This document shows, in pieces, positions 1,552 through 12,841 of a stretch of 24,217 bases of DNA. The position numbers and the translations under genes were made by a program. The DNA comes from Planctomycetales bacterium (lineage in GTDB: Bacteria; Planctomycetota; Planctomycetia; Gemmatales; Gemmataceae): contig JAGVLI010000732.1 in NCBI GenBank assembly GCA_020054355.1, forward strand, positions 1 through 24,217. The letters run 5' to 3'. The notes under the pieces were generated by a model. That model did not search any database. It had not been told where the DNA came from and worked only from the letters and a program-made list of their open reading frames with translations. How positions within the stretch are numbered: the first letter of the stretch is position 1; each line of letters opens with the position of its first letter.

Positions 1552-2556
1552 ATGTCTCTCCTACGCCATGACATCACTACCAATGATTGGGTAATCTTCG
1601 CGCCAGAGAGAGCACGGCGTCCACACGACCGCGAGAGCGGCCGTGCCAGTTCGTCCCCACCAAGTGGTTGCCCGTTCTGCCCAGGCAATGAGCGTCTGGC
1701 TGGCCCGGAAATCTACACCCTGCGGGGCGGCACGGCTGCGAATTCTCCCGGCTGGAGCATCCGCGTCATCCCGAACAAGTTCCCGGCCTTGCGGATCGAG
1801 GACGATTTTCGCCGGGTAGAAGAAGGTCCGTTGTTTCGGTTCATGGGCGGTTGCGGCGCCCACGAAGTCATTATCGAAACCCCGCAGCACGATCGCATCC
1901 TCGCCCAGCAAACCCCGCTGGAAATCGAGTTCGTCCTGCGGACGTTGCAACTTCGGTTCAACGATCTCCTGCGGGACCTGCGCTTCCAGACCATCGTGAT
2001 ATTCAAGAACCACGGGGAATCGGCGGGTACATCGCTCCGGCATCCGCACTGGCAACTGATTGCCACGCCCGTGGTGCCCCGCACTCTCCGCATCAAACAT
2101 GCAGTGGCCGAGGATTATTTCGACGCGACCGGCCAATGCCTCTACTGCGTCTTGCTGCACGAGGAACTGGCAGCACGTAAAAGACTCGTCGCCGAAAACG
2201 ACCATTTTGCGGCCGTCATGCCCTACGCATCTCGCGTGCCTTTCGAGACCTGGATATTACCCAAGGCTCATCAATCGTCCTTTGGTCTGGTCGAGCCGGC
2301 CCGGTTTCGGCCCCTGGCGGAACTCCTTCAGGCCGTTCTGGGAAAGCTCTGGACGGGCCTCGATGACCCGGACTTCAACCTGACCATCAACACGGCCCCG
2401 CGCGGAGACGAGGGAAAGGAGTATTTCCTCTGGCACATCGAGATTGTGCCGCGTTTGAGTCGTCCGGCCGGGTTCGAGATGGGCAGCGGGATGGCTATCA
2501 ACACCGTGTTGCCGGAAGATGCGGCACTGTTCTTGCAGAGCGTCGAAAGCGGCTGA
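1552..2556 (+). CDS. galT: Galactose-1-phosphate uridylyltransferase (GalT)-family nucleotidyltransferase
   Basis: N-terminal WVIFAPERARRP, Zn-binding CPFCPGNE, IPNKFP, HEVIIETP, catalytic HPHWQ (HxHxQ) and C-terminal WHIEIVPRL...GFEMGSG. Confidence 0.92.
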   Translation: MSLLRHDITTNDWVIFAPERARRPHDRESGRASSSPPSGCPFCPGNERLAGPEIYTLRGGTAANSPGWSIRVIPNKFPALRIEDDFRRVEEGPLFRFMGGCGAHEVIIETPQHDRILAQQTPLEIEFVLRTLQLRFNDLLRDLRFQTIVIFKNHGESAGTSLRHPHWQLIATPVVPRTLRIKHAVAEDYFDATGQCLYCVLLHEELAARKRLVAENDHFAAVMPYASRVPFETWILPKAHQSSFGLVEPARFRPLAELLQAVLGKLWTGLDDPDFNLTINTAPRGDEGKEYFLWHIEIVPRLSRPAGFEMGSGMAINTVLPEDAALFLQSVESG

Positions 2557-2698
2557 AACCATGAGGCAACCCTCGTAACGGCCAGAGGCGGGGAGTCAAC
2601 TGCCAGCAGCAACCGTACAACGGACAAGAGAAGGCATTGGCGCAACCGAGTTGGGGGATGGAACTTTGCGCTTTTTCTTGAGCGGGGAGCGATCAGCC

Positions 2699-3367
2699 AT
2701 GACCGATTTCAACGAACTGGACCAGCAAATTGCCCAGAAGCTGGCCGCCCACAAGGAAGACTGCCTGAAGCGGTACAACCGCGCGGCAGAGCGCATGCAC
2801 GCCATCGGAGAGCGGCATCGGCGGTTCACGGTCATTGGCGACCGGCTGATCCAGGAGGTGATACGACCACGCTTCGAACGGCTGGCCGCCCACTTTGACA
2901 ATGGCATGCTCCTGAGCCAGGAGCAAACCGGACGCCACCACTGCATTTGCACATTCCAGCACACGCCCCGCTTTCCCGCCACAACCAAGCTGGAGATGGG
3001 CGTCAGTCGTGATGGCAACGCGGAGAACGTGGAGGTCTACAGCGATGTGTCCATCCTGCCGCTGTTTTTTCAGCTGAGCGGGGAAGATCGGATGGCCATG
3101 CCGCTTGACCAGGTTGATGAGTCGCAGGTCGCCAGCTGGATTGACAAGAAGATCATGCACTTCCTGGAGGCTTACCTGCGTCTGGAAACGCAGGACCAGT
3201 ACCAGGCCGAGAACGCAGTCTTTTGTCCGGTCTGCAATATGCAGGTCAACAAACTCTATGCGCCGGCACAACTGGAGCACCAGGGGAAACAGTATTTCTT
3301 CTGCGTCCCCGAGTGCAAGGAGAAGTTCGAGGCCGATCCCGAGAAATACCTGGCTGGAAAAAGGTGA
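2699..3367 (+). CDS. YHS/TRASH-domain protein, probably cytoplasmic, with an uncharacterised ~170-aa N-terminal region
   Basis: ATG at 2699 follows GGGGAG. C-terminal CPVCNMQV...QYFFCVPECKEKFEADPEKYL is a YHS pattern. No signal peptide. The stop is 3 nt before cusB. Confidence 0.85.
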   Translation: MTDFNELDQQIAQKLAAHKEDCLKRYNRAAERMHAIGERHRRFTVIGDRLIQEVIRPRFERLAAHFDNGMLLSQEQTGRHHCICTFQHTPRFPATTKLEMGVSRDGNAENVEVYSDVSILPLFFQLSGEDRMAMPLDQVDESQVASWIDKKIMHFLEAYLRLETQDQYQAENAVFCPVCNMQVNKLYAPAQLEHQGKQYFFCVPECKEKFEADPEKYLAGKR

Positions 3368-3370
3368 ACC

Positions 3371-4693
3371 ATGACAGAGCAGCTCCAACAGCCGAAGCGA
3401 TTTCGTTCTTCATTCATCATGCTCGCCCTGGGCTTGGGCCTGGGTGCCGGTGCGACGACCCTGCACTTCAGCGGGCGGCTGGCACCGGTTTACCACGCCC
3501 TGGGATGGCACTCGCTGATGCCGATGAGCGAGCCGCGGGAAAATGCCAGCCCGTCCTCGCCGGGCGGACACGCCGGCCACGGCGGCATGAGCATGCCCCA
3601 AGGAACGAGCACGGGGGAACCATCCCAGATTTCCGGCTATTCCATTGTGGCCATCACCCCGGAACGCCAGCAGCTCGTCGGCGTGCGCACGGGCCGGGTC
3701 GAGCGCGACAAGCTCCTCATGTCGATCCGGGCGGTCGGCATCATCGAGCCAGACCAGACCCGGCTGGCCCGCATCCAGACGCGGATCAGCGGCTGGGTCA
3801 CGAAGGTGTATGCCAACTTCGTCGGGCAGACCGTCAAGAAGGGCGACCCTCTCCTGGAGATCTACAGCCCGGACCTGCTCGCCACTCAGGAAGAATATCT
3901 GATCGCCATGGACGGCGGACAGAAGTCCCTGGCGGACTCGGCCCGACGCCGGCTGGAATTGTGGGGAGTTCCCCAGGACGAAATCAAGGAGCTGGTCAAG
4001 ACCAAGACGGCCCGGGAAACGCTCATGTTGCGCGCTCCGATCAACGGCCGGGTCTTGGAGCGTAACGCGCTGGAGGGAACGCGCGTCGAGCCGACCACGG
4101 AGCTGTACCGCATCGCCGACCTCTCCGTCGTCTGGCTGCAGGCGAAGATCTACGAATACGAACTGCCGCACGTCGAGATCGGACAGCCGGTTCGCATCGC
4201 CCTTCTCTCCCACCCGGAAACCGAGTTCAAGAGCAAGGTGGCCTTCGTCGAACCCGTGTTCCAGGAGACGACGCGGACCGTGAAAGTGCGCATCGTGATC
4301 GACAATCCCAAAGATGAGTTCAAGCCGGGCATGTATGCGAACCTCCGCATCGAGCACGACATGGGTGAAGGGCTTCTGGTCCCGGAGTCGGCCCTGCTGC
4401 GGACGGGGGAACGCAACCTGGCCTTCCGCGTTTTGCCGGAAGGGCGTTTTGAGCCCGTGGAGGTCAAGGTGGGCGCGCGCTTCGGCGAGCGTTTCGAGGT
4501 GCTGGCGGGGCTCGCCGCCGGCGACCGGATCGTTACGTCGGCCAACTTCTTGATCGACGCAGAGTCCCGGCTGAAGTCCGCGACCTCGGGGATGGGCGGA
4601 CACCAGCACGGCTCAGGGGGTGCCGCAGCGCCCAAGTCGGACGGCACCCCGGCGAAAGCCCCTGGCGCCGGCGACAAGCAGCACAAACATTAA
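3371..4693 (+). CDS. cusB: CusB-like RND efflux periplasmic adaptor subunit
   Basis: N-terminal hydrophobic anchor; His/Met patch GGHAGHGGMSM; adaptor motifs ISGWVTKVY, VKKGDPLLEIYSPDL, RIADLSVVWL, FKPGMYA, GDRIVTSANFLIDAES; His-rich tail; directly upstream of cusA. Confidence 0.92.
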   Translation: MTEQLQQPKRFRSSFIMLALGLGLGAGATTLHFSGRLAPVYHALGWHSLMPMSEPRENASPSSPGGHAGHGGMSMPQGTSTGEPSQISGYSIVAITPERQQLVGVRTGRVERDKLLMSIRAVGIIEPDQTRLARIQTRISGWVTKVYANFVGQTVKKGDPLLEIYSPDLLATQEEYLIAMDGGQKSLADSARRRLELWGVPQDEIKELVKTKTARETLMLRAPINGRVLERNALEGTRVEPTTELYRIADLSVVWLQAKIYEYELPHVEIGQPVRIALLSHPETEFKSKVAFVEPVFQETTRTVKVRIVIDNPKDEFKPGMYANLRIEHDMGEGLLVPESALLRTGERNLAFRVLPEGRFEPVEVKVGARFGERFEVLAGLAAGDRIVTSANFLIDAESRLKSATSGMGGHQHGSGGAAAPKSDGTPAKAPGAGDKQHKH

Positions 4694-4706: not shown

Positions 4707-7700
4707 ATGATCGAAAAAATCATCAAGTTCTCCGCGAAGAACAAGTTCCTCGTCCTGATCTTCACCGTGGTGGCCGTGGTCGGAGCTATCCACTGGATGC
4801 GCGAAACCCCCCTGGACGCCATCCCGGACCTGTCGGACACCCAGGTCATCATCTATTCCCGCTGGGACCGCAGCCCGGACATCATCGAGGACCAGGTGAC
4901 CTACCCCATCGTGACGGCGATGCTGGGGGCCCCCAAGATCAAGGCGATTCGCGGCTTCTCCGATTTCGGTTTTTCCTACGTCTACGTCATCTTCCAGGAC
5001 GGCACCGACATCTACTGGGCGCGGAGCCGGACCATCGAGTATCTCTCCAAGATCTTGCCGCGGTTGCCGGAAGGAGTGCGGACCGAGCTCGGCCCAGACG
5101 CCACCAGCGTCGGCTGGGTCTTTCAGTACAGCCTGGTCGATAAGAGCGGTCAGAACGATCTCGCCCAGTTGCGCACATTTCAGGATTGGTATCTGCGCTA
5201 CCAGCTTCAGTCCGTCCCAGGAGTGGCGGAAGTGGCGTCGATCGGCGGGTTCCAGAAGCAGTACCAGGTCAACATCAACCCCAACGCCTTGAACGCCTAC
5301 AACGTGACCCTGCCGACCGTCGTCCAGGCGATCCGGGAGGGCAACAACGACGTCGGCGGCCGCGTCGTCGAGTTCAGCGGCGCCGAGTACATGGTGCGCG
5401 GCCGCGGCTATGTCAAGAGCGTTGCCGACGTCGAAAACATCGTGGTCGGCCGCGACGCGCAGGGCACGCCGATCCTGATCAAGAACCTGGGCCACGTCGC
5501 GCTCGGACCGGACATCCGCCGCGGGATCGCGGACCTGGACGGAGAGGGCGACACCGTTGGCGGCATTGTGGTCATGCGCGCCGGTGAGAATGCTCTCAAC
5601 GTCATCGAACGGGTCAAGGACAAGCTGGAGGACCTGAAGCCCTCCATGCCCAAGGGGGTCGAGGTTGTCACGACCTACGACCGTTCCGTGCTGATCGACC
5701 GCTCCATTGATACCCTCAAGGAAGAACTGCTGGTCGAGATCCTCATCGTCAGTGCGGTCATCCTCATCTTCCTGTGGCACATCCCGTCGGCGATCATCCC
5801 CATCTTGACGATCCCCGTTTCCGTGGTGCTGGCCTTCATCCCCATGTACTTCATGGGGCTGACCACGAACATCATGTCGATCACGGGGATCGCCATCTCC
5901 ATCGGCGTGCTGGTGGACGGCGCGATCGTCGAGGTGGAGAACGCCTATAAACGCCTGGAACAATGGATCGCCGGCGGCCGGCAAGGCGATTTCCACGACG
6001 TGCGTCTGCGCGCCCTCAAGGAGGTCGGGCCATCGGTCTTCTTCTCCCTGCTCGTCATCGCGGTGGCCTTCATGCCGGTGTTCACGCTCGTGGACCAGGA
6101 GGGCCGGCTGTTCAAGCCGCTGGCGTTCACCAAGAACCTGGCCATGGCCATCGCCGCGCTGCTCGCCATCACCCTCGACCCCGCGATGCGGATGATGTTC
6201 ACGCGCATGGACTATGTCCACTTCCGGCCCAGGTGGCTGGCCTGGATGGTCAACACGGCGACGGTGGGCCGCTACTATCCCGAGGAACAGCATCCCATCA
6301 GCAAGCGTCTGTTTCGCCTTTACGAGCCCGCGTGCAACTTCGTGCTGCGCCACAAGGCATTGATCATCATCGGCGCCTTCGCCCTCGTGCTGCTGACGAT
6401 CCCGGCCTACTCGCAGCTCGGCTCCGAGTTCATGCCCCCACTCGACGAGGGGACGCTCCTCTACATGCCGACGACCTTACCCGGGCTTTCGGTCACCGAG
6501 GCGCAAACCCTGCTGGGGACGATGGACCGGGTGCTGAAAATGTTTCCCGAGGTGGAGCGCGTGTTTGGCAAGGCCGGGCGAGCGGAGACCTCCACGGACC
6601 CGGCGCCGTTCTCCATGATGGAAATCACCATCGTGCTCAAGCCACACGAGCAGTGGCGCCGGAAGGAACGCTGGTATTCCGGCTGGCCCGGCTGGTTGCA
6701 AGTTCCCCTGCGGCACATCTGGCCCGACCGGTTGAGCACCGAGGAGCTGGTCGCGGAGATGGACCGCGCCATGCAGTTCCCCGGCGTCGTGAACGCCTGG
6801 ACCATGCCCATCAAGGCGCGCATCGACATGCTCAGCACCGGCGTCCGGACGCCGGTTGGAATCAAAATCCTTGGCGCGGACCTCAACGAGATCGAACGGC
6901 TCGGGGCCCACGTCGAGATGATCCTTAACCAGGTCCCCGGTACGCGGAGCATCTACGCCGAACGGACGGGGGGCGGGTATTTCATCGATTTCGTGCTCAA
7001 GCGGGAGCAGCTCGCCCGCTACGGTTTGACGGTCAAGGAAGCCGAGATGGTGGTCACGTCCGCCGTCGGTGGCGAAGCGATCACGACCACGGTGGAAGGG
7101 CGCGAGCGCTACACGATCAACGTCCGTTACGCCCGCGAGCTGCGCGACGACCTCGACAAGCTGCGCCGCGTGCTCGTCCCCACCTCGGCCGGCGCCCACG
7201 TGCCCCTCGCCGAGCTAGCCGACATCAAGCTCGTGACCGGTCCGGCGATGATCCGGGACGAGAACGGCCTGCTCTCCGGCTATGTTTACGTCGATCTGGC
7301 GGGGCGGGACGTGGGCGGCTACGTGGAGGAAGCCAAGGAGTTGGTCGCGAAGGAATTGCAGCTCCCGACCGGCTACACCCTCACCTGGAGCGGGCAGTAC
7401 GAGAACATGATTCGCGTGCGCGAGCGCTTGAAGCTCGTCGTGCCGATCACGATCTTTCTGATCTTCCTTCTGCTGTACATGAACACCGGCTCGGCGGTGA
7501 AGGCCGGCATCGTCATGCTTGCAGTCCCGTTTTCGCTGATCGGCGCCGTCTGGTTCCTGTGGTTGCTCGGCTACAACATTTCGATTGCCGTGTGGGTCGG
7601 CATGATCGCCCTGATGGGCCTGGACGCGGAAACCGGGGTCTTCATGCTGCTGTTCCTCGACCTGTCCTATTACGACGCAGTCCGCAAAGGCAAGATGAAG

Positions 7701-7997
7701 ACCTACGAGGACCTCAAAGAAGCCATCATCCACGGAGCTGTGAAACGCATCCGGCCGAAGATGATGACGGTGGCCGCGGCGATGATGGGCCTGTTGCCGA
7801 TCATGTGGTCGCTGGGCACCGGCGCCGACATGATGAAGCGGATCGCGGCGCCCATGATCGGCGGCCTGGTCACCAGTTTCATTCTCGAGCTCCTGGTCTA
7901 TCCGCCGATCTACGCCATCTGGAAATGGCGCTACGAGATGAAGTACGGCACGGTGGATGTCAGCCAGTTGCCGATCCCGGAGTTGCGGGCGCATTGA
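4707..7997 (+). CDS. cusA: CusA/SilA-family Cu(I)/Ag(I) efflux RND transporter (1096 aa)
   Basis: MIEKII start, DAIPDLSDTQVII and LGPDATSVGWV. Methionines lie in the contexts of the E. coli CusA triad (LLYMP, PFSMME, RIDMLSTG). Proton-relay residues lie in LVDGAIV, LDAETG and RIRPKMMT. Many TM segments. Confidence 0.96.
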   Translation: MIEKIIKFSAKNKFLVLIFTVVAVVGAIHWMRETPLDAIPDLSDTQVIIYSRWDRSPDIIEDQVTYPIVTAMLGAPKIKAIRGFSDFGFSYVYVIFQDGTDIYWARSRTIEYLSKILPRLPEGVRTELGPDATSVGWVFQYSLVDKSGQNDLAQLRTFQDWYLRYQLQSVPGVAEVASIGGFQKQYQVNINPNALNAYNVTLPTVVQAIREGNNDVGGRVVEFSGAEYMVRGRGYVKSVADVENIVVGRDAQGTPILIKNLGHVALGPDIRRGIADLDGEGDTVGGIVVMRAGENALNVIERVKDKLEDLKPSMPKGVEVVTTYDRSVLIDRSIDTLKEELLVEILIVSAVILIFLWHIPSAIIPILTIPVSVVLAFIPMYFMGLTTNIMSITGIAISIGVLVDGAIVEVENAYKRLEQWIAGGRQGDFHDVRLRALKEVGPSVFFSLLVIAVAFMPVFTLVDQEGRLFKPLAFTKNLAMAIAALLAITLDPAMRMMFTRMDYVHFRPRWLAWMVNTATVGRYYPEEQHPISKRLFRLYEPACNFVLRHKALIIIGAFALVLLTIPAYSQLGSEFMPPLDEGTLLYMPTTLPGLSVTEAQTLLGTMDRVLKMFPEVERVFGKAGRAETSTDPAPFSMMEITIVLKPHEQWRRKERWYSGWPGWLQVPLRHIWPDRLSTEELVAEMDRAMQFPGVVNAWTMPIKARIDMLSTGVRTPVGIKILGADLNEIERLGAHVEMILNQVPGTRSIYAERTGGGYFIDFVLKREQLARYGLTVKEAEMVVTSAVGGEAITTTVEGRERYTINVRYARELRDDLDKLRRVLVPTSAGAHVPLAELADIKLVTGPAMIRDENGLLSGYVYVDLAGRDVGGYVEEAKELVAKELQLPTGYTLTWSGQYENMIRVRERLKLVVPITIFLIFLLLYMNTGSAVKAGIVMLAVPFSLIGAVWFLWLLGYNISIAVWVGMIALMGLDAETGVFMLLFLDLSYYDAVRKGKMKTYEDLKEAIIHGAVKRIRPKMMTVAAAMMGLLPIMWSLGTGADMMKRIAAPMIGGLVTSFILELLVYPPIYAIWKWRYEMKYGTVDVSQLPIPELRAH

Positions 7998-8058
7998 GCT
8001 GGTCCCGGGTCACGCGCCTTTCTCCAGGTAGAACCGTTGCCCGTCGGAGGCTTCTGCG

Positions 8059-9915
8059 ATGGCCAATCCTCTCAAGGACCCCGTTTGCGGCATGAACGTG
8101 CAAGCCACTTCAGGGTGGACTGCTTCTTACAGGGGGGCCGTTTACTACTTCTGCTCGGAGTATTGCCGGCGGTTGTTTGTGGAAAGTCCGGGAAAGTACG
8201 TTGCGCCGAGATCGCCGTCGCTCGGAGCCGAGCTGGACACTTCGCGGCGCATCGCGTACTTCTCCATGGAAGTGGGAGTGGACTCCCGGATGCCCACTTA
8301 TAGCGGCGGGCTCGGAGTGCTGGCGGGCGACACGTTGACATCGGCCGCGGACCTTCGCATCCCGATGGTCGCGGTCAGCTTGCTGCCGGCCAACGGCTAC
8401 TTCGACCAGCAGCTCGACGAGTGGGGCAACCAACGGGAAGCTCCGGTAATCTGGGACCCAGCGGCTCTGGCCCGCAAGCTCCCCACGACGGTGGAAGTCA
8501 TGATCGAAGGCCGGCGGGTGCTTGTCGGTGGCTGGCAATATGACATTGTCGGGGCTACCGGCTACTCGGTGCCGCTGTTCCTTCTCGACTGCCGAGTGGA
8601 CCAGAACACTCCGGCGGACCGGGAATTGACCGCCTGGCTCTATGGCGGCGATTTGCGCTACCGGCTCGCCCAGGAGATCATCCTGGGCCTCGGCGGCCTC
8701 CGCCTGTTGCGGGCCCTGGGATACGCGCAGCTGGAACGGTATCACATGAACGAGGGGCATGCGGCCTTGCTGGTCATCGAACTCCTGCGCGAAAGGGAGA
8801 ACCAGGGGCTGGGCCGGTGGGATTTCAACGGCGTCCGGGCGCAGTGTGTCTTCACTACGCATACCCCCGTCCCCGCCGGCCATGACCAGTTCCCCTACGA
8901 CCTCGTTCATCAGATGCTCGGAGAGCCGGTACCTGGCGACGTCCTGCGCATGCTCGCCGGCACCGATCGATTGAACATGACCTACCTGGCCTTGAACATG
9001 AGCAACCACATCAACGGCGTGGCCAAGAAGCACGGGGAAGTTTCCCAGGCCATGTTCCCCGGTTATGCGATCCATTCCATTACCAACGGTGTCCATGCCG
9101 GGCGCTGGACCGCGGACAGTTTCAAGGCCCTGTTCGATCGCTGCATCCCCGGCTGGGCCAACGACCCGTTCTCTCTGCGGCACGCCGTTGCCATCCCGCG
9201 GGAGGAAATTGGCCAGGCTCATGCGCTGGCCAAGCAAGCCTTGCTTGCCGAAGTACATCGGCGAACAAACGTTGCCCTCGACCCGGAAACGTTTACGATC
9301 GGCTTCGCCCGGCGAGCTACGCAGTACAAGCGGGCGGACTTGCTCTTCACGGACTCCGGACGCCTCCGAGAGATCGTGGCGAACGCCGGCCCGATCCAGA
9401 TTCTCTTCGCGGGGAAGGCCCATCCGCAAGATCAAGGCGGCAAGGAAAGCATCCGGCGAGTGTTCGAGGCCGCGCGCCAGCTGCGAGACAAGGTCGCGAT
9501 CGTGTACCTCGCCAACCACGACATGGCCTTGGCCCAACTGCTTACTGCCGGGGTCGATCTCTGGCTGAACACGCCGCTGCGGCCCCTGGAGGCTTCGGGC
9601 ACCTCCGGCATGAAAGCGGCCCTGAACGGCGTGCCGAGCCTCAGCGTCTTGGACGGCTGGTGGATCGAAGGACACCTGGAGGGGATTACCGGCTGGTCCA
9701 TCGGGCCTGCGTCCGCTAAGTCTCTTCCCCAGGGGGACGTCAATCGGGAAGATGTCGAGGACCTGTACCGTAAGCTCGGCAGCGTCATCGTACCGCTTTA
9801 CTACCGCGACCGAACAGGCTGGGGCGACATCATGCGGCAGACGATTGCACTCAACGCCTCCTTCTTCAACACTCACCGGATGCTTCAGCAATATGCTGCG
9901 AATGCCTACGTTTGA
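8059..9915 (+). CDS. glgP: Alpha-glucan (glycogen/maltodextrin) phosphorylase, short GT35 type, with an N-terminal YHS domain
   Basis: GGAGG precedes the ATG. Residues 1-48 are KDPVCGMNV...YYFCSEYCRRLF (YHS). They are followed by IAYFSME, YSGGLGVLAGD, HMNEGH, FTTHTPVPAGHD, GFARRATQYKR and EASGTSGMKAALNG (PLP lysine). Confidence 0.93.
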   Translation: MANPLKDPVCGMNVQATSGWTASYRGAVYYFCSEYCRRLFVESPGKYVAPRSPSLGAELDTSRRIAYFSMEVGVDSRMPTYSGGLGVLAGDTLTSAADLRIPMVAVSLLPANGYFDQQLDEWGNQREAPVIWDPAALARKLPTTVEVMIEGRRVLVGGWQYDIVGATGYSVPLFLLDCRVDQNTPADRELTAWLYGGDLRYRLAQEIILGLGGLRLLRALGYAQLERYHMNEGHAALLVIELLRERENQGLGRWDFNGVRAQCVFTTHTPVPAGHDQFPYDLVHQMLGEPVPGDVLRMLAGTDRLNMTYLALNMSNHINGVAKKHGEVSQAMFPGYAIHSITNGVHAGRWTADSFKALFDRCIPGWANDPFSLRHAVAIPREEIGQAHALAKQALLAEVHRRTNVALDPETFTIGFARRATQYKRADLLFTDSGRLREIVANAGPIQILFAGKAHPQDQGGKESIRRVFEAARQLRDKVAIVYLANHDMALAQLLTAGVDLWLNTPLRPLEASGTSGMKAALNGVPSLSVLDGWWIEGHLEGITGWSIGPASAKSLPQGDVNREDVEDLYRKLGSVIVPLYYRDRTGWGDIMRQTIALNASFFNTHRMLQQYAANAYV

Positions 9916-10173
9916 TTCAACACCCGCTTCCGGTCGCCACCAGGGCTCAGGCGAAGGGCCGGACGGCGCGGGCCTCGGCTGAAGATTCCGTACATTCTTC
10001 TTGGCAGCTAAATAGCGGTTATAAGCTCTTGGGCCGGGAGAATCTTCCTTGGCCCTGCCTTGGTCCGTCGAGCCTCGGCCGTAATTTTTCCGATGTTACC
10101 AACAACGCTCGGATTCTGGGGCACCGGGTATTTCCGGTGATTTGAAGGAATCGCACCGCGATGGGAGGGACCC

Positions 10174-10746
10174 GTGCAATCGACGGCAAATAAAGCGATC
10201 TTCTGGACAGCGGGAGCGCTGGTGACGGTCCTTGGTGCAGCCGTGACGTGGTTCACCATCGGTGTCCGGGATGCACATGCTTCTCCGTTGGTCGGTTGGG
10301 GCGGAGGTCATGCCTGGAAGAAGCCGGTTTGCAGCTGCGATGGCGAGGACGTGTCTGACACCGTAGGCGGCACCTGGTACTGGCTCCGCAGTCCGGATGA
10401 GGAAAAGCGCGTCATCGCCGGCCTCTATAACCGCTACTGTATTCGCTGTCATGGGGTGGACGGCCGGGGTGTTTGGGACATCCCCGACGTGCCCGACTTT
10501 ACCAACTCCCGCTGGCAGGCTTCGCGCTCCGATGCTCAGCTGGCGCGGCTCACCCTGGAAGGCCGCGGGGCAGTCATGCCGCCGTTCCGCGGGGCGCTGA
10601 GCCTCGAAGAGGCTTGGGGCATGGCCCGTTATTTGCGCACTTTTGTGCCGGGGACCGAAGTGTCGCGCCCTCGGTTTGACGAACCGGGAAAACCCGTCGC
10701 AGCCGAGTTGCCTGCGCCGAAGAAGATCGAGCCCGCCCCAAAGTAG
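10174..10746 (+). CDS. Exported or membrane-anchored monoheme class I (c6-like) cytochrome c
   Basis: GGAGGG precedes a GTG start; N-terminal hydrophobic segment; CIRCH at 10438-10452; probable distal Met in AVMPPF. Confidence 0.88.
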   Translation: MQSTANKAIFWTAGALVTVLGAAVTWFTIGVRDAHASPLVGWGGGHAWKKPVCSCDGEDVSDTVGGTWYWLRSPDEEKRVIAGLYNRYCIRCHGVDGRGVWDIPDVPDFTNSRWQASRSDAQLARLTLEGRGAVMPPFRGALSLEEAWGMARYLRTFVPGTEVSRPRFDEPGKPVAAELPAPKKIEPAPK

Positions 10747-11245: not shown

Positions 11246-12841
11246 ATGCGCATTCTGCCCTCGTTCATCTTGCTGGGGATTGCCATGCTGGCCCTACCCA
11301 GGATGGGTGAAGCCCAATCTCCCAGTACCGTGAGCAATCCCGGCGACGAGGTCGGGGCGCCAGACCACGGTCGGGAAGTATCGCCGGCAGGCGAAGGTCC
11401 GTCTCCTGAGGAACAACTCGTCCGCTTGCAGAAAAACATCGAAGCCTTGCGCGCGGAGCAGGCAGTCGTTCAAGCGGCAGTCCAGCCGGATGACAAGCTG
11501 AAAAAGCAGTTCGATCTCCTGCAGAAGCAGATCGAAACCCAGCAAAAGATGATCGAGCTGCTCTTGGATCACGTGAAGAAGCAGCCGCTGGCCGGTACGC
11601 CAGTCGAAAAGTTGCAAGGCCAGGTCGCCACCGTGCAAGCCCGTTCCAAGCAGGCTGCCCAGCGCGACCAGGAGCTGTCGCAGGCGCTCGACAATGTCGT
11701 CGAGCAGCGGGACGCCGACCAGCGAAACGGGCCGCAACTGCCGGCACCTCTGAAAGAGCTATTCCTGCCCAGCGGAACGAACGAGTCGCCCCTGAGCATC
11801 TATGGCACGCTGGCAACGGGCTATACCCACTTTGAAGGGCGCCATGGGAACTTTGAATTCCCGGATTTCGCCCCATTCTTCCTCTTGCAGCTCAATGATC
11901 GGTTCCTGCTCGAAGCGGAGATCGAATTCGGCGCCGAGGAAGTTGAAGTCTCCCAGGCGCAGGTTGACTTCATCGCCAACGATTGGCTGACCGTGGTCGC
12001 CGGCCGATTCCTGGTTCCCGTGGGATTCTTCAACGAACGGTTGCATGCGAACTGGATCAACAAGCTGCCCGATTTTCCCTTGATATTCCGTCAGGTCACT
12101 CCTGTTAGTGACCTGTCCCTCAACGGCGTCCAGTTGCGCGGCGCCAAGTACCTGGGATGTTGGCCCGTGAAACTTGAATACGCATTGTTCTTTGCCAACG
12201 GCCTCCGCTTGCCAGAAACCGAAGCGCCAGAACTGGCAGAATTGGCAACTCTCGACGAACTGAAGGAAACCTCTCGCGAACTGACCAATGTCTGGGCCTC
12301 CGGCGGGCGCCTGGGCATCTGGCTGCCGGAAATCGGGCTGGTTGCCGGGATTTCCGGGTTTTTCAACGGTCCCTATACGGCGGTAGTCTTCGAAGAGGAC
12401 CCACCCCGCCGGGCCAATGACGACTTCCAGGTTTTGCAAGTCGATGCCGGTTACCACAAGGGCAACTGGGACGTGCGCTTCGAGTATGCCCACATGTTCC
12501 AGGACGCGCGTTCGTTCATCGGCGAGAGGATCGAGCGGCGCGGGCTTTACGCCCAGGTTGCTTATCGGCCGTACCACGCGCAGTGCAAGTACGTGCAAAA
12601 CACCGAGCCGGTGTTCCGCTTCAGCTCCGCCCGATTCAAAGGAATTGATCCGGCAGGTTTGGATATCGGTGCCTTTGCCTCGCCGCTCGATGTCCCGGTC
12701 GACCGCGATCAGTACACCTTCGGCGTCAACTACTATTTCTATCCATCCCTGGTGCTGAAGCTGGCCTACGAGTTCAATCACGAGCGCGGCATCGATCTCA
12801 AGGACAACGTGTTCCTGGCCCAGCTGGCCTGGGGGTTCTAG
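11246..12841 (+). CDS. Putative outer-membrane beta-barrel (porin-like) protein with an N-terminal coiled coil
   Basis: GGGAG precedes the ATG at 11246. A signal peptide (MRILPSFILLGIAMLALP...A) is followed by a Gln/Glu/Lys heptad region, then alternating amphipathic strands (e.g. YTFGVNYYF, VLKLAYEF). It ends LAQLAWGF with a terminal aromatic residue. Confidence 0.75.
   Translation: MRILPSFILLGIAMLALPRMGEAQSPSTVSNPGDEVGAPDHGREVSPAGEGPSPEEQLVRLQKNIEALRAEQAVVQAAVQPDDKLKKQFDLLQKQIETQQKMIELLLDHVKKQPLAGTPVEKLQGQVATVQARSKQAAQRDQELSQALDNVVEQRDADQRNGPQLPAPLKELFLPSGTNESPLSIYGTLATGYTHFEGRHGNFEFPDFAPFFLLQLNDRFLLEAEIEFGAEEVEVSQAQVDFIANDWLTVVAGRFLVPVGFFNERLHANWINKLPDFPLIFRQVTPVSDLSLNGVQLRGAKYLGCWPVKLEYALFFANGLRLPETEAPELAELATLDELKETSRELTNVWASGGRLGIWLPEIGLVAGISGFFNGPYTAVVFEEDPPRRANDDFQVLQVDAGYHKGNWDVRFEYAHMFQDARSFIGERIERRGLYAQVAYRPYHAQCKYVQNTEPVFRFSSARFKGIDPAGLDIGAFASPLDVPVDRDQYTFGVNYYFYPSLVLKLAYEFNHERGIDLKDNVFLAQLAWGF

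Follow-up and report, generated by a model that had tools for sequence, protein, structure and literature searches.

A YHS metal-binding domain fused to a short-type alpha-glucan phosphorylase in copper and heavy-metal gene islands

Why would an enzyme of glycogen breakdown carry a metal-binding domain at its N terminus? The question is raised by one gene in a 24,217-nucleotide stretch of DNA from a Planctomycetales bacterium (contig JAGVLI010000732.1, positions 1 to 24,217 of the forward strand; here called the window), in which a YHS domain and a short-type alpha-glucan phosphorylase are read in a single open frame (P0001, 618 amino acids) running from the ATG at 8059 to the TGA at 9915. An earlier note on this DNA, made from the sequence alone, had offered two readings of this YHS::glgP gene: a metal-sensing appendage through which copper or silver could influence glucan breakdown, or an accidental join between a small post-cusA YHS gene and the phosphorylase. 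We found that the gene is one member of a widespread fusion that sits almost exclusively in copper or heavy-metal homeostasis islands.

The frame joining DPVCGM...FCSEYC (residues 7 to 36) to IAYFSME is uninterrupted and is led by a GGAGG ribosome-binding site, and on this point the sequence, Pfam, and NCBIfam all confirmed the earlier description. The protein consists, in order, of the YHS domain (residues 6 to 49), a variable linker of 13 to 14 amino acids, and a short-type alpha-glucan phosphorylase matched by TIGR02094 (residues 65 to 617), the first residues of this last part being R63-R64-IAYFSME. Read codon by codon (GCG CCG AGA TCG CCG TCG CTC GGA GCC GAG CTG GAC ACT TCG CGG CGC), the linker has no in-frame ATG, GTG, or TTG, as the note had stated, and its sole candidate start is a CTG 5 bases past GGAG. 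The public gene call on the contig (P0002, window positions 8290 to 9915) begins at M78 and gives a product of 541 amino acids, from which the YHS domain and also the opening conserved strand of the phosphorylase are missing. An internal start at M78 was considered and rejected, because it would remove the invariant RRIAYFSME strand that opens the fold; the 541-amino-acid call is an annotation error describing a truncated product. Internal translation starts, which the note had named as a way for the fusion to fail, were judged unlikely from the pattern of conservation. Contigs from other sequencing runs span positions 8027 to 8360 and 8132 to 8966 with no indels. Additionally, a lake metatranscriptome library, in which DNA carry-over is possible, contains two read-length contigs with 0 differences, one spanning 7931 to 8081 (151 nucleotides, from the cusA stop to the ATG) and the other 8072 to 8222, in the YHS region; the first is a weak hint of cotranscription with cusA. 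Over positions 6500 to 10300, a lake-water metatranscriptome library (X2) yielded 10 contigs of at least 99% identity and a drinking-water metagenome (X4) yielded 11, and another drinking-water run (X3) holds a variant with 8 differences between 8147 and 8239, all of which fall, by frame reading, at nonconserved YHS positions or in the linker.

The fusion is not confined to this genome. Relatives were taken as the best 120 matches among 5.8 billion clustered proteins, and all of these except P0002 and one 549-amino-acid entry combined PF04945 with PF00343, with identities of 63 to 72% and lengths of about 618 amino acids; their source names include NC10/Methylomirabilis, Nitrospirales, Planctomycetes, Phycisphaerae, and Binatia. 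Among GTDB species genomes, the fusion was present in Brocadiaceae, Thermoanaerobaculia, Edaphobacter, Ignavibacteriales, Bacteroidota, Desulfobulbia, Omnitrophota, Nostocales, and a Bathyarchaeota archaeon. The search for YHS plus GT35 architectures across genomes that the earlier note had suggested thus found the fusion in many phyla (Planctomycetota, Nitrospirota, NC10, Acidobacteriota, Bacteroidota, Omnitrophota, Desulfobacterota, and Bathyarchaeota). It also occurs on plasmids of the cultured cyanobacteria Leptolyngbya boryana NIES-2135 and IU 594, Stanieria cyanosphaera PCC 7437 (a conjugative plasmid), Aulosira laxa NIES-50/Tolypothrix PCC 7101, and Chroococcidiopsis CCNUC1. When residues 1 to 110 were compared with 1.84 billion representatives, about 30 of the 150 listed spanned the junction in one stretch, a count that is a lower bound and is confounded by multi-YHS proteins and gene fragments. 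Within the phylum of the window's genome, a junction-spanning match was present in 7 of 301 sampled genomes (this one included) and in 0 of 16 genomes of the same class, and the distribution there is sporadic and accessory. The idea of a fusion unique to this assembly, or of an accidental join to a YHS mini-gene, is refuted by this spread, by the purifying selection described below, and by an identity of only 37% with the window's second YHS domain. The same low identity, together with the C-x2-C in place of D-x2-C in that other domain, led us to reject a recent local copy of it onto glgP.

Both domains belong to known families, and their combination can be seen in databases, where the gene goes simply by "alpha-glucan family phosphorylase"; it is this architecture of a classic enzyme that is uncharacterized, and the gene in the window adds one member to it. 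The note's remark that it is absent among characterized phosphorylases agrees with our literature searches, in which we found no paper joining a YHS domain and a phosphorylase and, for DUF3417, one unrelated survey. In one closed-looking genome (L095, G132:C1:288500-308499), the fused gene matches only residues 5 to 548 in a frame of 545 amino acids and may be C-terminally truncated.

A tree built from the catalytic domain only (74 rows, 17 of them fused) placed 15 fused proteins in one region, with the remaining two, L026 and L079, nested in well-supported unfused clades. The former is a Desulfobulbia fusion with CKM for CGM, and the latter is a Bathyarchaeota fusion without a linker. In the approximately unbiased (AU) test, a single clade of all 17 fused rows was rejected (251 log-likelihood units worse; p-AU, 1.8e-61), and a single clade of the 15 was compatible with the data (p, 0.57). 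The tree and the AU test together imply that the same domain joined the same enzyme at least three times. The main clade mixes at least six phyla and plasmids and has therefore moved horizontally, and the fusion is, by these sequence comparisons, a conserved, horizontally mobile accessory gene.

The genes around the fusion separate it clearly from its unfused relatives. In an unbiased clustering of neighboring open reading frames (ORFs), an ICMT-family membrane methyltransferase was found at 5 of 17 fused loci versus 0 of 66 unfused loci, an outer-membrane efflux protein (OEP) at 4 versus 0, and CusA at 4 versus 1, with CusB enriched too; the single "unfused" locus with CusA is a contig-truncated and probably fused gene. 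A marker scan (CusA, CusB, P1B ATPase, multicopper oxidase, further YHS domains, Metal_resist protein, and ICMT) detected at least one metal marker, within about 10 kb, at 14 of 17 fused loci; the 64 unfused loci had none, although the flanks available were equal (on average 15.0 kb for fused and 14.5 kb for unfused loci). Because these markers had been picked from the fused loci, we retested the association on new loci of the window's own phylum, where CusA/CusB, multicopper oxidase, CopA, or YHS genes lay within 10 kb of all 5 new fused genes and of none of 14 unfused genes. P-type ATPases next to unfused phosphorylases were considered as hidden copper genes and rejected: five of six such ORFs are P2-type, the sixth (L083) has core domains only, and none carries an HMA or YHS domain. 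The order OEP-cusB-cusA-(x)-fusion recurs at L001, L014, and L059, and CusA/CusB adjoin the fusion at L091 and L094. On the Stanieria plasmid, a single-strand array runs from an HMA protein through a heavy-metal P-type ATPase, DUF5676, a universal stress protein (Usp), a multicopper oxidase, DUF2933, ICMT, TVP38, and a SAM methyltransferase to glgP, past which lie MerR, RppAB, more ATPases, and a four-helix copper-binding protein; a Leptolyngbya plasmid is similar.

The putative metal ligands of the YHS part are conserved. The residues D7, C10, M12, C32, and C36 were invariant in alignments of 119, 40, and 42 sequences; in the 40 diverse fusions S33 and F40 were invariant as well, and the linker columns were free to vary. 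Four of these residues form the pattern D/C-x2-C...C-x3-C (D7, C10, C32, and C36), and C10, M12, C32, and C36 are common, by alignment, to the YHS domains of a neighboring copper ATPase and of the protein that opens the window's cus unit. Ratios of nonsynonymous to synonymous substitution (dN/dS), taken only from three sequence pairs with unsaturated synonymous sites, came to 0.15, 0.02, and 0.04 in the YHS segment, compared with 0.12, 0.08, and 0.09 in the enzyme body; the linker gave 0.95, 0.55, and 0.47. The YHS part is therefore under purifying selection like the enzyme body, with the linker near neutral, and it is most readily understood as translated and constrained. AlphaFold2 (AF2) modeled the domain as two beta-hairpins and a helix, with predicted local distance difference test (pLDDT) values of 66 to 93 (78.6 for a model of the isolated domain). 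Foldseek gave no match at an E value of ≤0.001 with the isolated YHS model; its best matches were the reference proteins for the treble-clef-like YHS fold (a small beta-hairpin plus helix), namely, the YHS-like C terminus of toluene/phenol hydroxylase alpha subunits and ribosomal L24e, all of them weak (E, 0.3 to 2.4; probability, up to 0.96). We infer that D7, C10, C32, and C36, with M12, form a soft-metal site, for which Cu(I) or Ag(I) would be the likeliest occupant.

The remainder of the protein looks like an intact phosphorylase. TIGR02094 covers residues 65 to 617 (model positions 1 to 598 of 600) with a score of 527.7 bits against a cutoff of 191.7. Enzymes of the GT35 family are recognized by a lysine that binds pyridoxal phosphate (PLP) in the motif E-A-S-G-T-x-x-M-K and by a G-G-L-G loop lining the phosphate site. 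Here both are present and invariant in 40 fused relatives, the loop as Y81-SGGLG-86 and the lysine motif as E511-ASGTSGM-K519 (K519 at 9613 to 9615). The AF2 model (overall pLDDT, 80.8) has a confident GT-B phosphorylase body, whose nearest solved structure in Foldseek was the Segatella copri glycogen phosphorylase (9l6i; E, 2e-41; template modeling [TM] score, 0.82; 34% identity over residues 64 to 613), with TM scores of about 0.73 to the Escherichia coli and muscle enzymes. The catalytic body, with its PLP lysine and glycine loop kept, is the same TIGR02094 type as in 9l6i and in the Thermococcales maltodextrin phosphorylase (NF041129). However, 9l6i differs in having an N-terminal region of about 108 amino acids that is not a YHS domain and has no counterpart here, as well as a long C-terminal extension, and we found no metal-binding domain on a TIGR02094-type phosphorylase among the solved members or in the literature searched. 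Judged by its invariant motifs and the fold match to 9l6i, the enzyme is complete and apparently active.

In the window itself, YHS::glgP comes at the end of a same-strand series, YHS protein-cusB-cusA-YHS::glgP (Table 1). The cus-leader YHS protein opens the cusBA unit, with its stop 3 nucleotides before cusB, and its N-terminal part gave no lead in Pfam, NCBIfam, or Atlas. A gap of 61 nucleotides with no terminator-like site separates the cusA stop from the phosphorylase ATG on the same strand, and the operon probably ends at the hairpins between 10026 and 10079. The run resembles E. coli CusCFBA in its upstream CusB-type adaptor and CusA/CzcA-family resistance-nodulation-division (RND) pump but lacks cusF, cusC, and cusRS; moreover, it begins with a cytoplasmic YHS protein and ends with a phosphorylase. 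The metagenome-assembled genome (MAG) to which the window belongs (5.6 Mb, 1115 contigs, about 70% complete) also holds an unfused TIGR02094 paralogue of 45% identity, which makes the fused enzyme an additional copy tied to the metal island; contig C882 holds a weaker match to the P0001 core (34% identity over residues 229 to 537). Elsewhere in this genome, contig C83 (L008:1-1626, minus strand) encodes a P1B-type ATPase with an N-terminal YHS domain and an HMBD domain, adjoining a DsbD-like thiol-disulfide protein, and another contig (L007:802-1653, plus strand) encodes a second protein of the same build as the cus-leader, an unknown part plus YHS, of 284 amino acids. In this genome, YHS seems to serve as the standard cytoplasmic module for metal binding.

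Table 1. Features of the YHS::glgP locus, in window coordinates
Feature	Position	Strand	Details
GalT-type uridylyltransferase	1552-2556		Heads co-oriented run
cus-leader protein, 238 amino acids: N-terminal domain of about 185 amino acids, unrecognized, plus C-terminal YHS (C-x2-C variant)	2651-3367	+	Pfam YHS at residues 193-235, 52.3 bits
cusB-type membrane fusion protein	3371-4693	+	Pfam HlyD_D23 and CusB HlyD_D4; best NCBIfam PRK09783 CusB, below cutoff
cusA-type heavy-metal RND pump	4707-7997	+	Pfam ACR_tran; TIGR00914 CusA/CzcA, 1079 bits; listed ORF from 4620, likely start 4707
GGAGG ribosome-binding site	8046-8050	+	8 nucleotides before ATG 8059, read directly
YHS::alpha-glucan phosphorylase gene, whole (P0001)	8059-9915	+	618 amino acids, stop codon included
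YHS (TRASH-type) metal-binding domain PF04945	8074-8205	+	Residues 6-49; Pfam 42.8 bits versus gathering score 30.3, model positions 2-45 of 47
Putative ligands D7, C10, C32, C36, plus invariant M12	D7 8077-8079; C10 8086-8088; C32 8152-8154; C36 8164-8166; M12 8092-8094	+	Conserved columns
Linker, flexible, Ser/Pro/Gly-rich	8206-8244	+	Residues 50-62; columns variable, pLDDT <50, dN/dS 0.47-0.95
Short-type GT35 alpha-glucan phosphorylase body	8245-9912	+	Residues 63-618; Pfam Phosphorylase PF00343; TIGR02094
Two weak terminator-like hairpins	10026-10040, 10067-10079	+	Past phosphorylase stop; number not above shuffled expectation

What, then, might the domain do for the enzyme? The metal-sensing reading proposed in the earlier note found partial support, as it fits the invariant ligands, the replicated association with copper genes, and the one characterized YHS-enzyme fusion. 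In the mechanism that we favor, rising cytoplasmic metal would lead Cu(I) or Ag(I) to occupy D7, C10, C32, and C36 (with M12), and the metal-occupied domain would alter phosphorylase activity, more probably by activation. Glycogen would then be converted to glucose-1-phosphate, and efflux and repair would draw on the resulting ATP, proton-motive force, and reductant. RND pumps use proton-motive force and P1B pumps use ATP, and glycogen breakdown yields both plus reductant. Activation is favored because the gene is placed for coproduction with the pump and because the only characterized YHS-enzyme fusion, the Mycobacterium phlei class IIIc adenylyl cyclase, is copper activated: it was stimulated about sixfold by 1 to 10 μM Cu2+, only with its YHS domain present (PMC4626032). 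As in the fusion described here, a single YHS domain is attached to an enzyme by a short linker (8 amino acids there, 13 to 14 here), its proposed ligands are one Asp and three Cys, and its suggested role is that of a copper sensor by which catalysis is turned on (Linder 2015, PMC4626032). In contrast, the cyclase domain is C-terminal and its output is cyclic AMP, whereas ours is N-terminal on a catabolic enzyme; copper activation was measured for the cyclase, and the present fusion is known from its architecture and genomic context. The P1B copper ATPases and the archaeal CopR/CopT proteins carry the same small Cys-rich YHS/TRASH domain in copper loci, but on transporters or transcription factors rather than on a metabolic enzyme. 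With classical GT35 phosphorylases (muscle glycogen phosphorylase, and E. coli GlgP with HPr, 9s8k), the fusion shares the concept of an N-terminal or allosteric input. However, those are long-type enzymes of about 800 amino acids with 18 to 21% identity, and their inputs are AMP, phosphorylation, or HPr, whereas the input proposed here is a metal acting through a fused domain.

That a Cu(I)/Ag(I)-responsive YHS module tunes glycogen phosphorolysis during copper stress, with activation the likelier direction, is a proposal on which we find the evidence evenly balanced. A fuller version, in which direct posttranslational control of glycogen phosphorylase by Cu(I)/Ag(I) through a fused YHS domain evolved at least three times, spread by copper islands and plasmids, and is part of a broader, as yet undescribed strategy in which YHS-tagged catabolic enzymes draw on energy reserves to power metal efflux, is put forward tentatively and is on balance doubtful. 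Several observations count against the proposal. The fused loci L015, L024, and L079 had no metal gene nearby in the marker scan. No regulator was identified in the window, and copper induction of the operon is an assumption; the RNA-library contigs, moreover, could stem from carried-over DNA. The YHS domains of the toluene and phenol hydroxylases, the closest solved folds, have no known copper role (PMC4626032). Finally, high copper represses the ordinary long-type glgP, and also glgX, in Synechocystis (PMC4182526), so copper-induced glycogen breakdown is no general rule.

There are several alternatives. The domain might be a structural zinc ribbon or a docking module, for oligomerization or as a tether to YHS/HMA proteins or pumps, in which case there would be no allosteric control by metal and the link with copper would be transcriptional only, by co-regulation in the island. 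The weak structural matches to the hydroxylase alpha subunits and L24e have a structural or empty site (PMC4626032), longer relatives such as the S. copri enzyme bear a different N-terminal domain at the same place, and several other YHS proteins are encoded beside fused genes. However, M12, the invariant Met that follows the first Cys, fits a soft-metal site, as does the copper-ATPase-like D/C-x2-C...C-x3-C set, three independent fusions to one domain type are hard to square with a purely structural role, and the unfused sister proteins manage without any N-terminal domain; we regard this explanation as unlikely. A single site on a 68-kDa protein would make a poor buffer, and stand-alone YHS genes already lie in the same loci, which makes it quite improbable that the domain is a cytoplasmic Cu(I) buffer or chaperone, an extra thiolate site on an abundant soluble enzyme that sequesters copper or passes it to CopA/Cus with phosphorylase activity unaffected. 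The choice of a glucan phosphorylase as the carrier in three independent fusions would also go unexplained, even though small stand-alone YHS proteins and YHS-tagged P1B ATPases do occur in these islands and the window's own cus unit starts with another YHS protein.

Metal binding could instead inhibit the enzyme, halting glycogen breakdown at high copper and thereby sparing reserves or slowing metabolism. Thiol-bound metals are often enzyme inhibitors. The repression of glgP and glgX in Synechocystis (PMC4182526) points in the same direction, but an enzyme encoded at the end of a copper-efflux operon would then be made mainly when it is off, and the sole characterized YHS-enzyme fusion is activated (PMC4626032), so we give inhibition little credence. 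The possibility that the fusion is an artifact, whether through an assembly or frame error or through an internal start that leaves the YHS frame unexpressed, draws on the public call from M78 (P0002). It is very hard to believe in view of the recurrence of the frame in over 100 assemblies made independently and in cultured strains with closed plasmids, the purifying selection on the YHS part, the loss of the RRIAYFSME strand that an M78 start would entail, the GGAGG 8 nucleotides before the ATG at 8059, and the indel-free contigs of other runs over the junction.

Glycogen phosphorylase is a textbook allosteric enzyme, yet among its inputs we know of no metal ion that works by way of a dedicated sensor domain, and the literature searched describes none. 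If the YHS domain does gate the enzyme, copper homeostasis would gain an energy-supply arm beyond pumps, oxidases, and chaperones, and this arm would be present in nitrifiers, anammox bacteria, NC10 methanotrophs, and cyanobacteria, with relevance to water treatment and copper-plumbed drinking water. The YHS domain, widespread and poorly understood, would thereby receive just its second functional assignment. Since the gene lies on plasmids of the cultured L. boryana and Stanieria PCC 7437, the idea is directly testable.

Further features of the neighborhoods were recorded. On an L. boryana plasmid, a phosphoketolase gene (L089:13950-16331) directly follows YHS::glgP, and the two enzymes together would make a glycogen-to-acetyl-phosphate route within the metal island. 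In cyanobacterial plasmids and Nitrospirales, the fused gene is preceded by a module of DUF2933, an ICMT-family methyltransferase, DUF5676, universal stress proteins, TVP38, and a class I SAM methyltransferase (L089:5688-12004, L090:6521-12008, L003:5695-9647, L012:8037-9782, and L025:23-1596), in which the methyltransferase stop overlaps the glgP start by 4 to 8 nucleotides. Bacteroidota/Ignavibacteriales loci have three or four separate YHS domains around the fusion (L018:1873-2007, 4355-4480, and 11595-11771; L017:18863-19021), one of them on a YHS plus HMA copper ATPase two genes downstream. P2-type ATPases (Cation_ATPase_N/C) adjoin short-type phosphorylases whether these are fused (L011:5633-8398, L013:18385-21168, and L014:8030-9775) or unfused (L033, L035, L036, and L080); a P-type ATPase cluster was found at 11 of 83 loci, a second recurrent pairing of phosphorylase and ion pump that copper does not explain. 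Relatives of the window's GalT gene lie about 7 kb from unfused glgP genes in Scalindua/Brocadiaceae (L049:2131-3129, L063:2501-3499, and L067:2660-3655), so the GalT at the head of the run may be a glucan-metabolism gene and not part of the cus unit.

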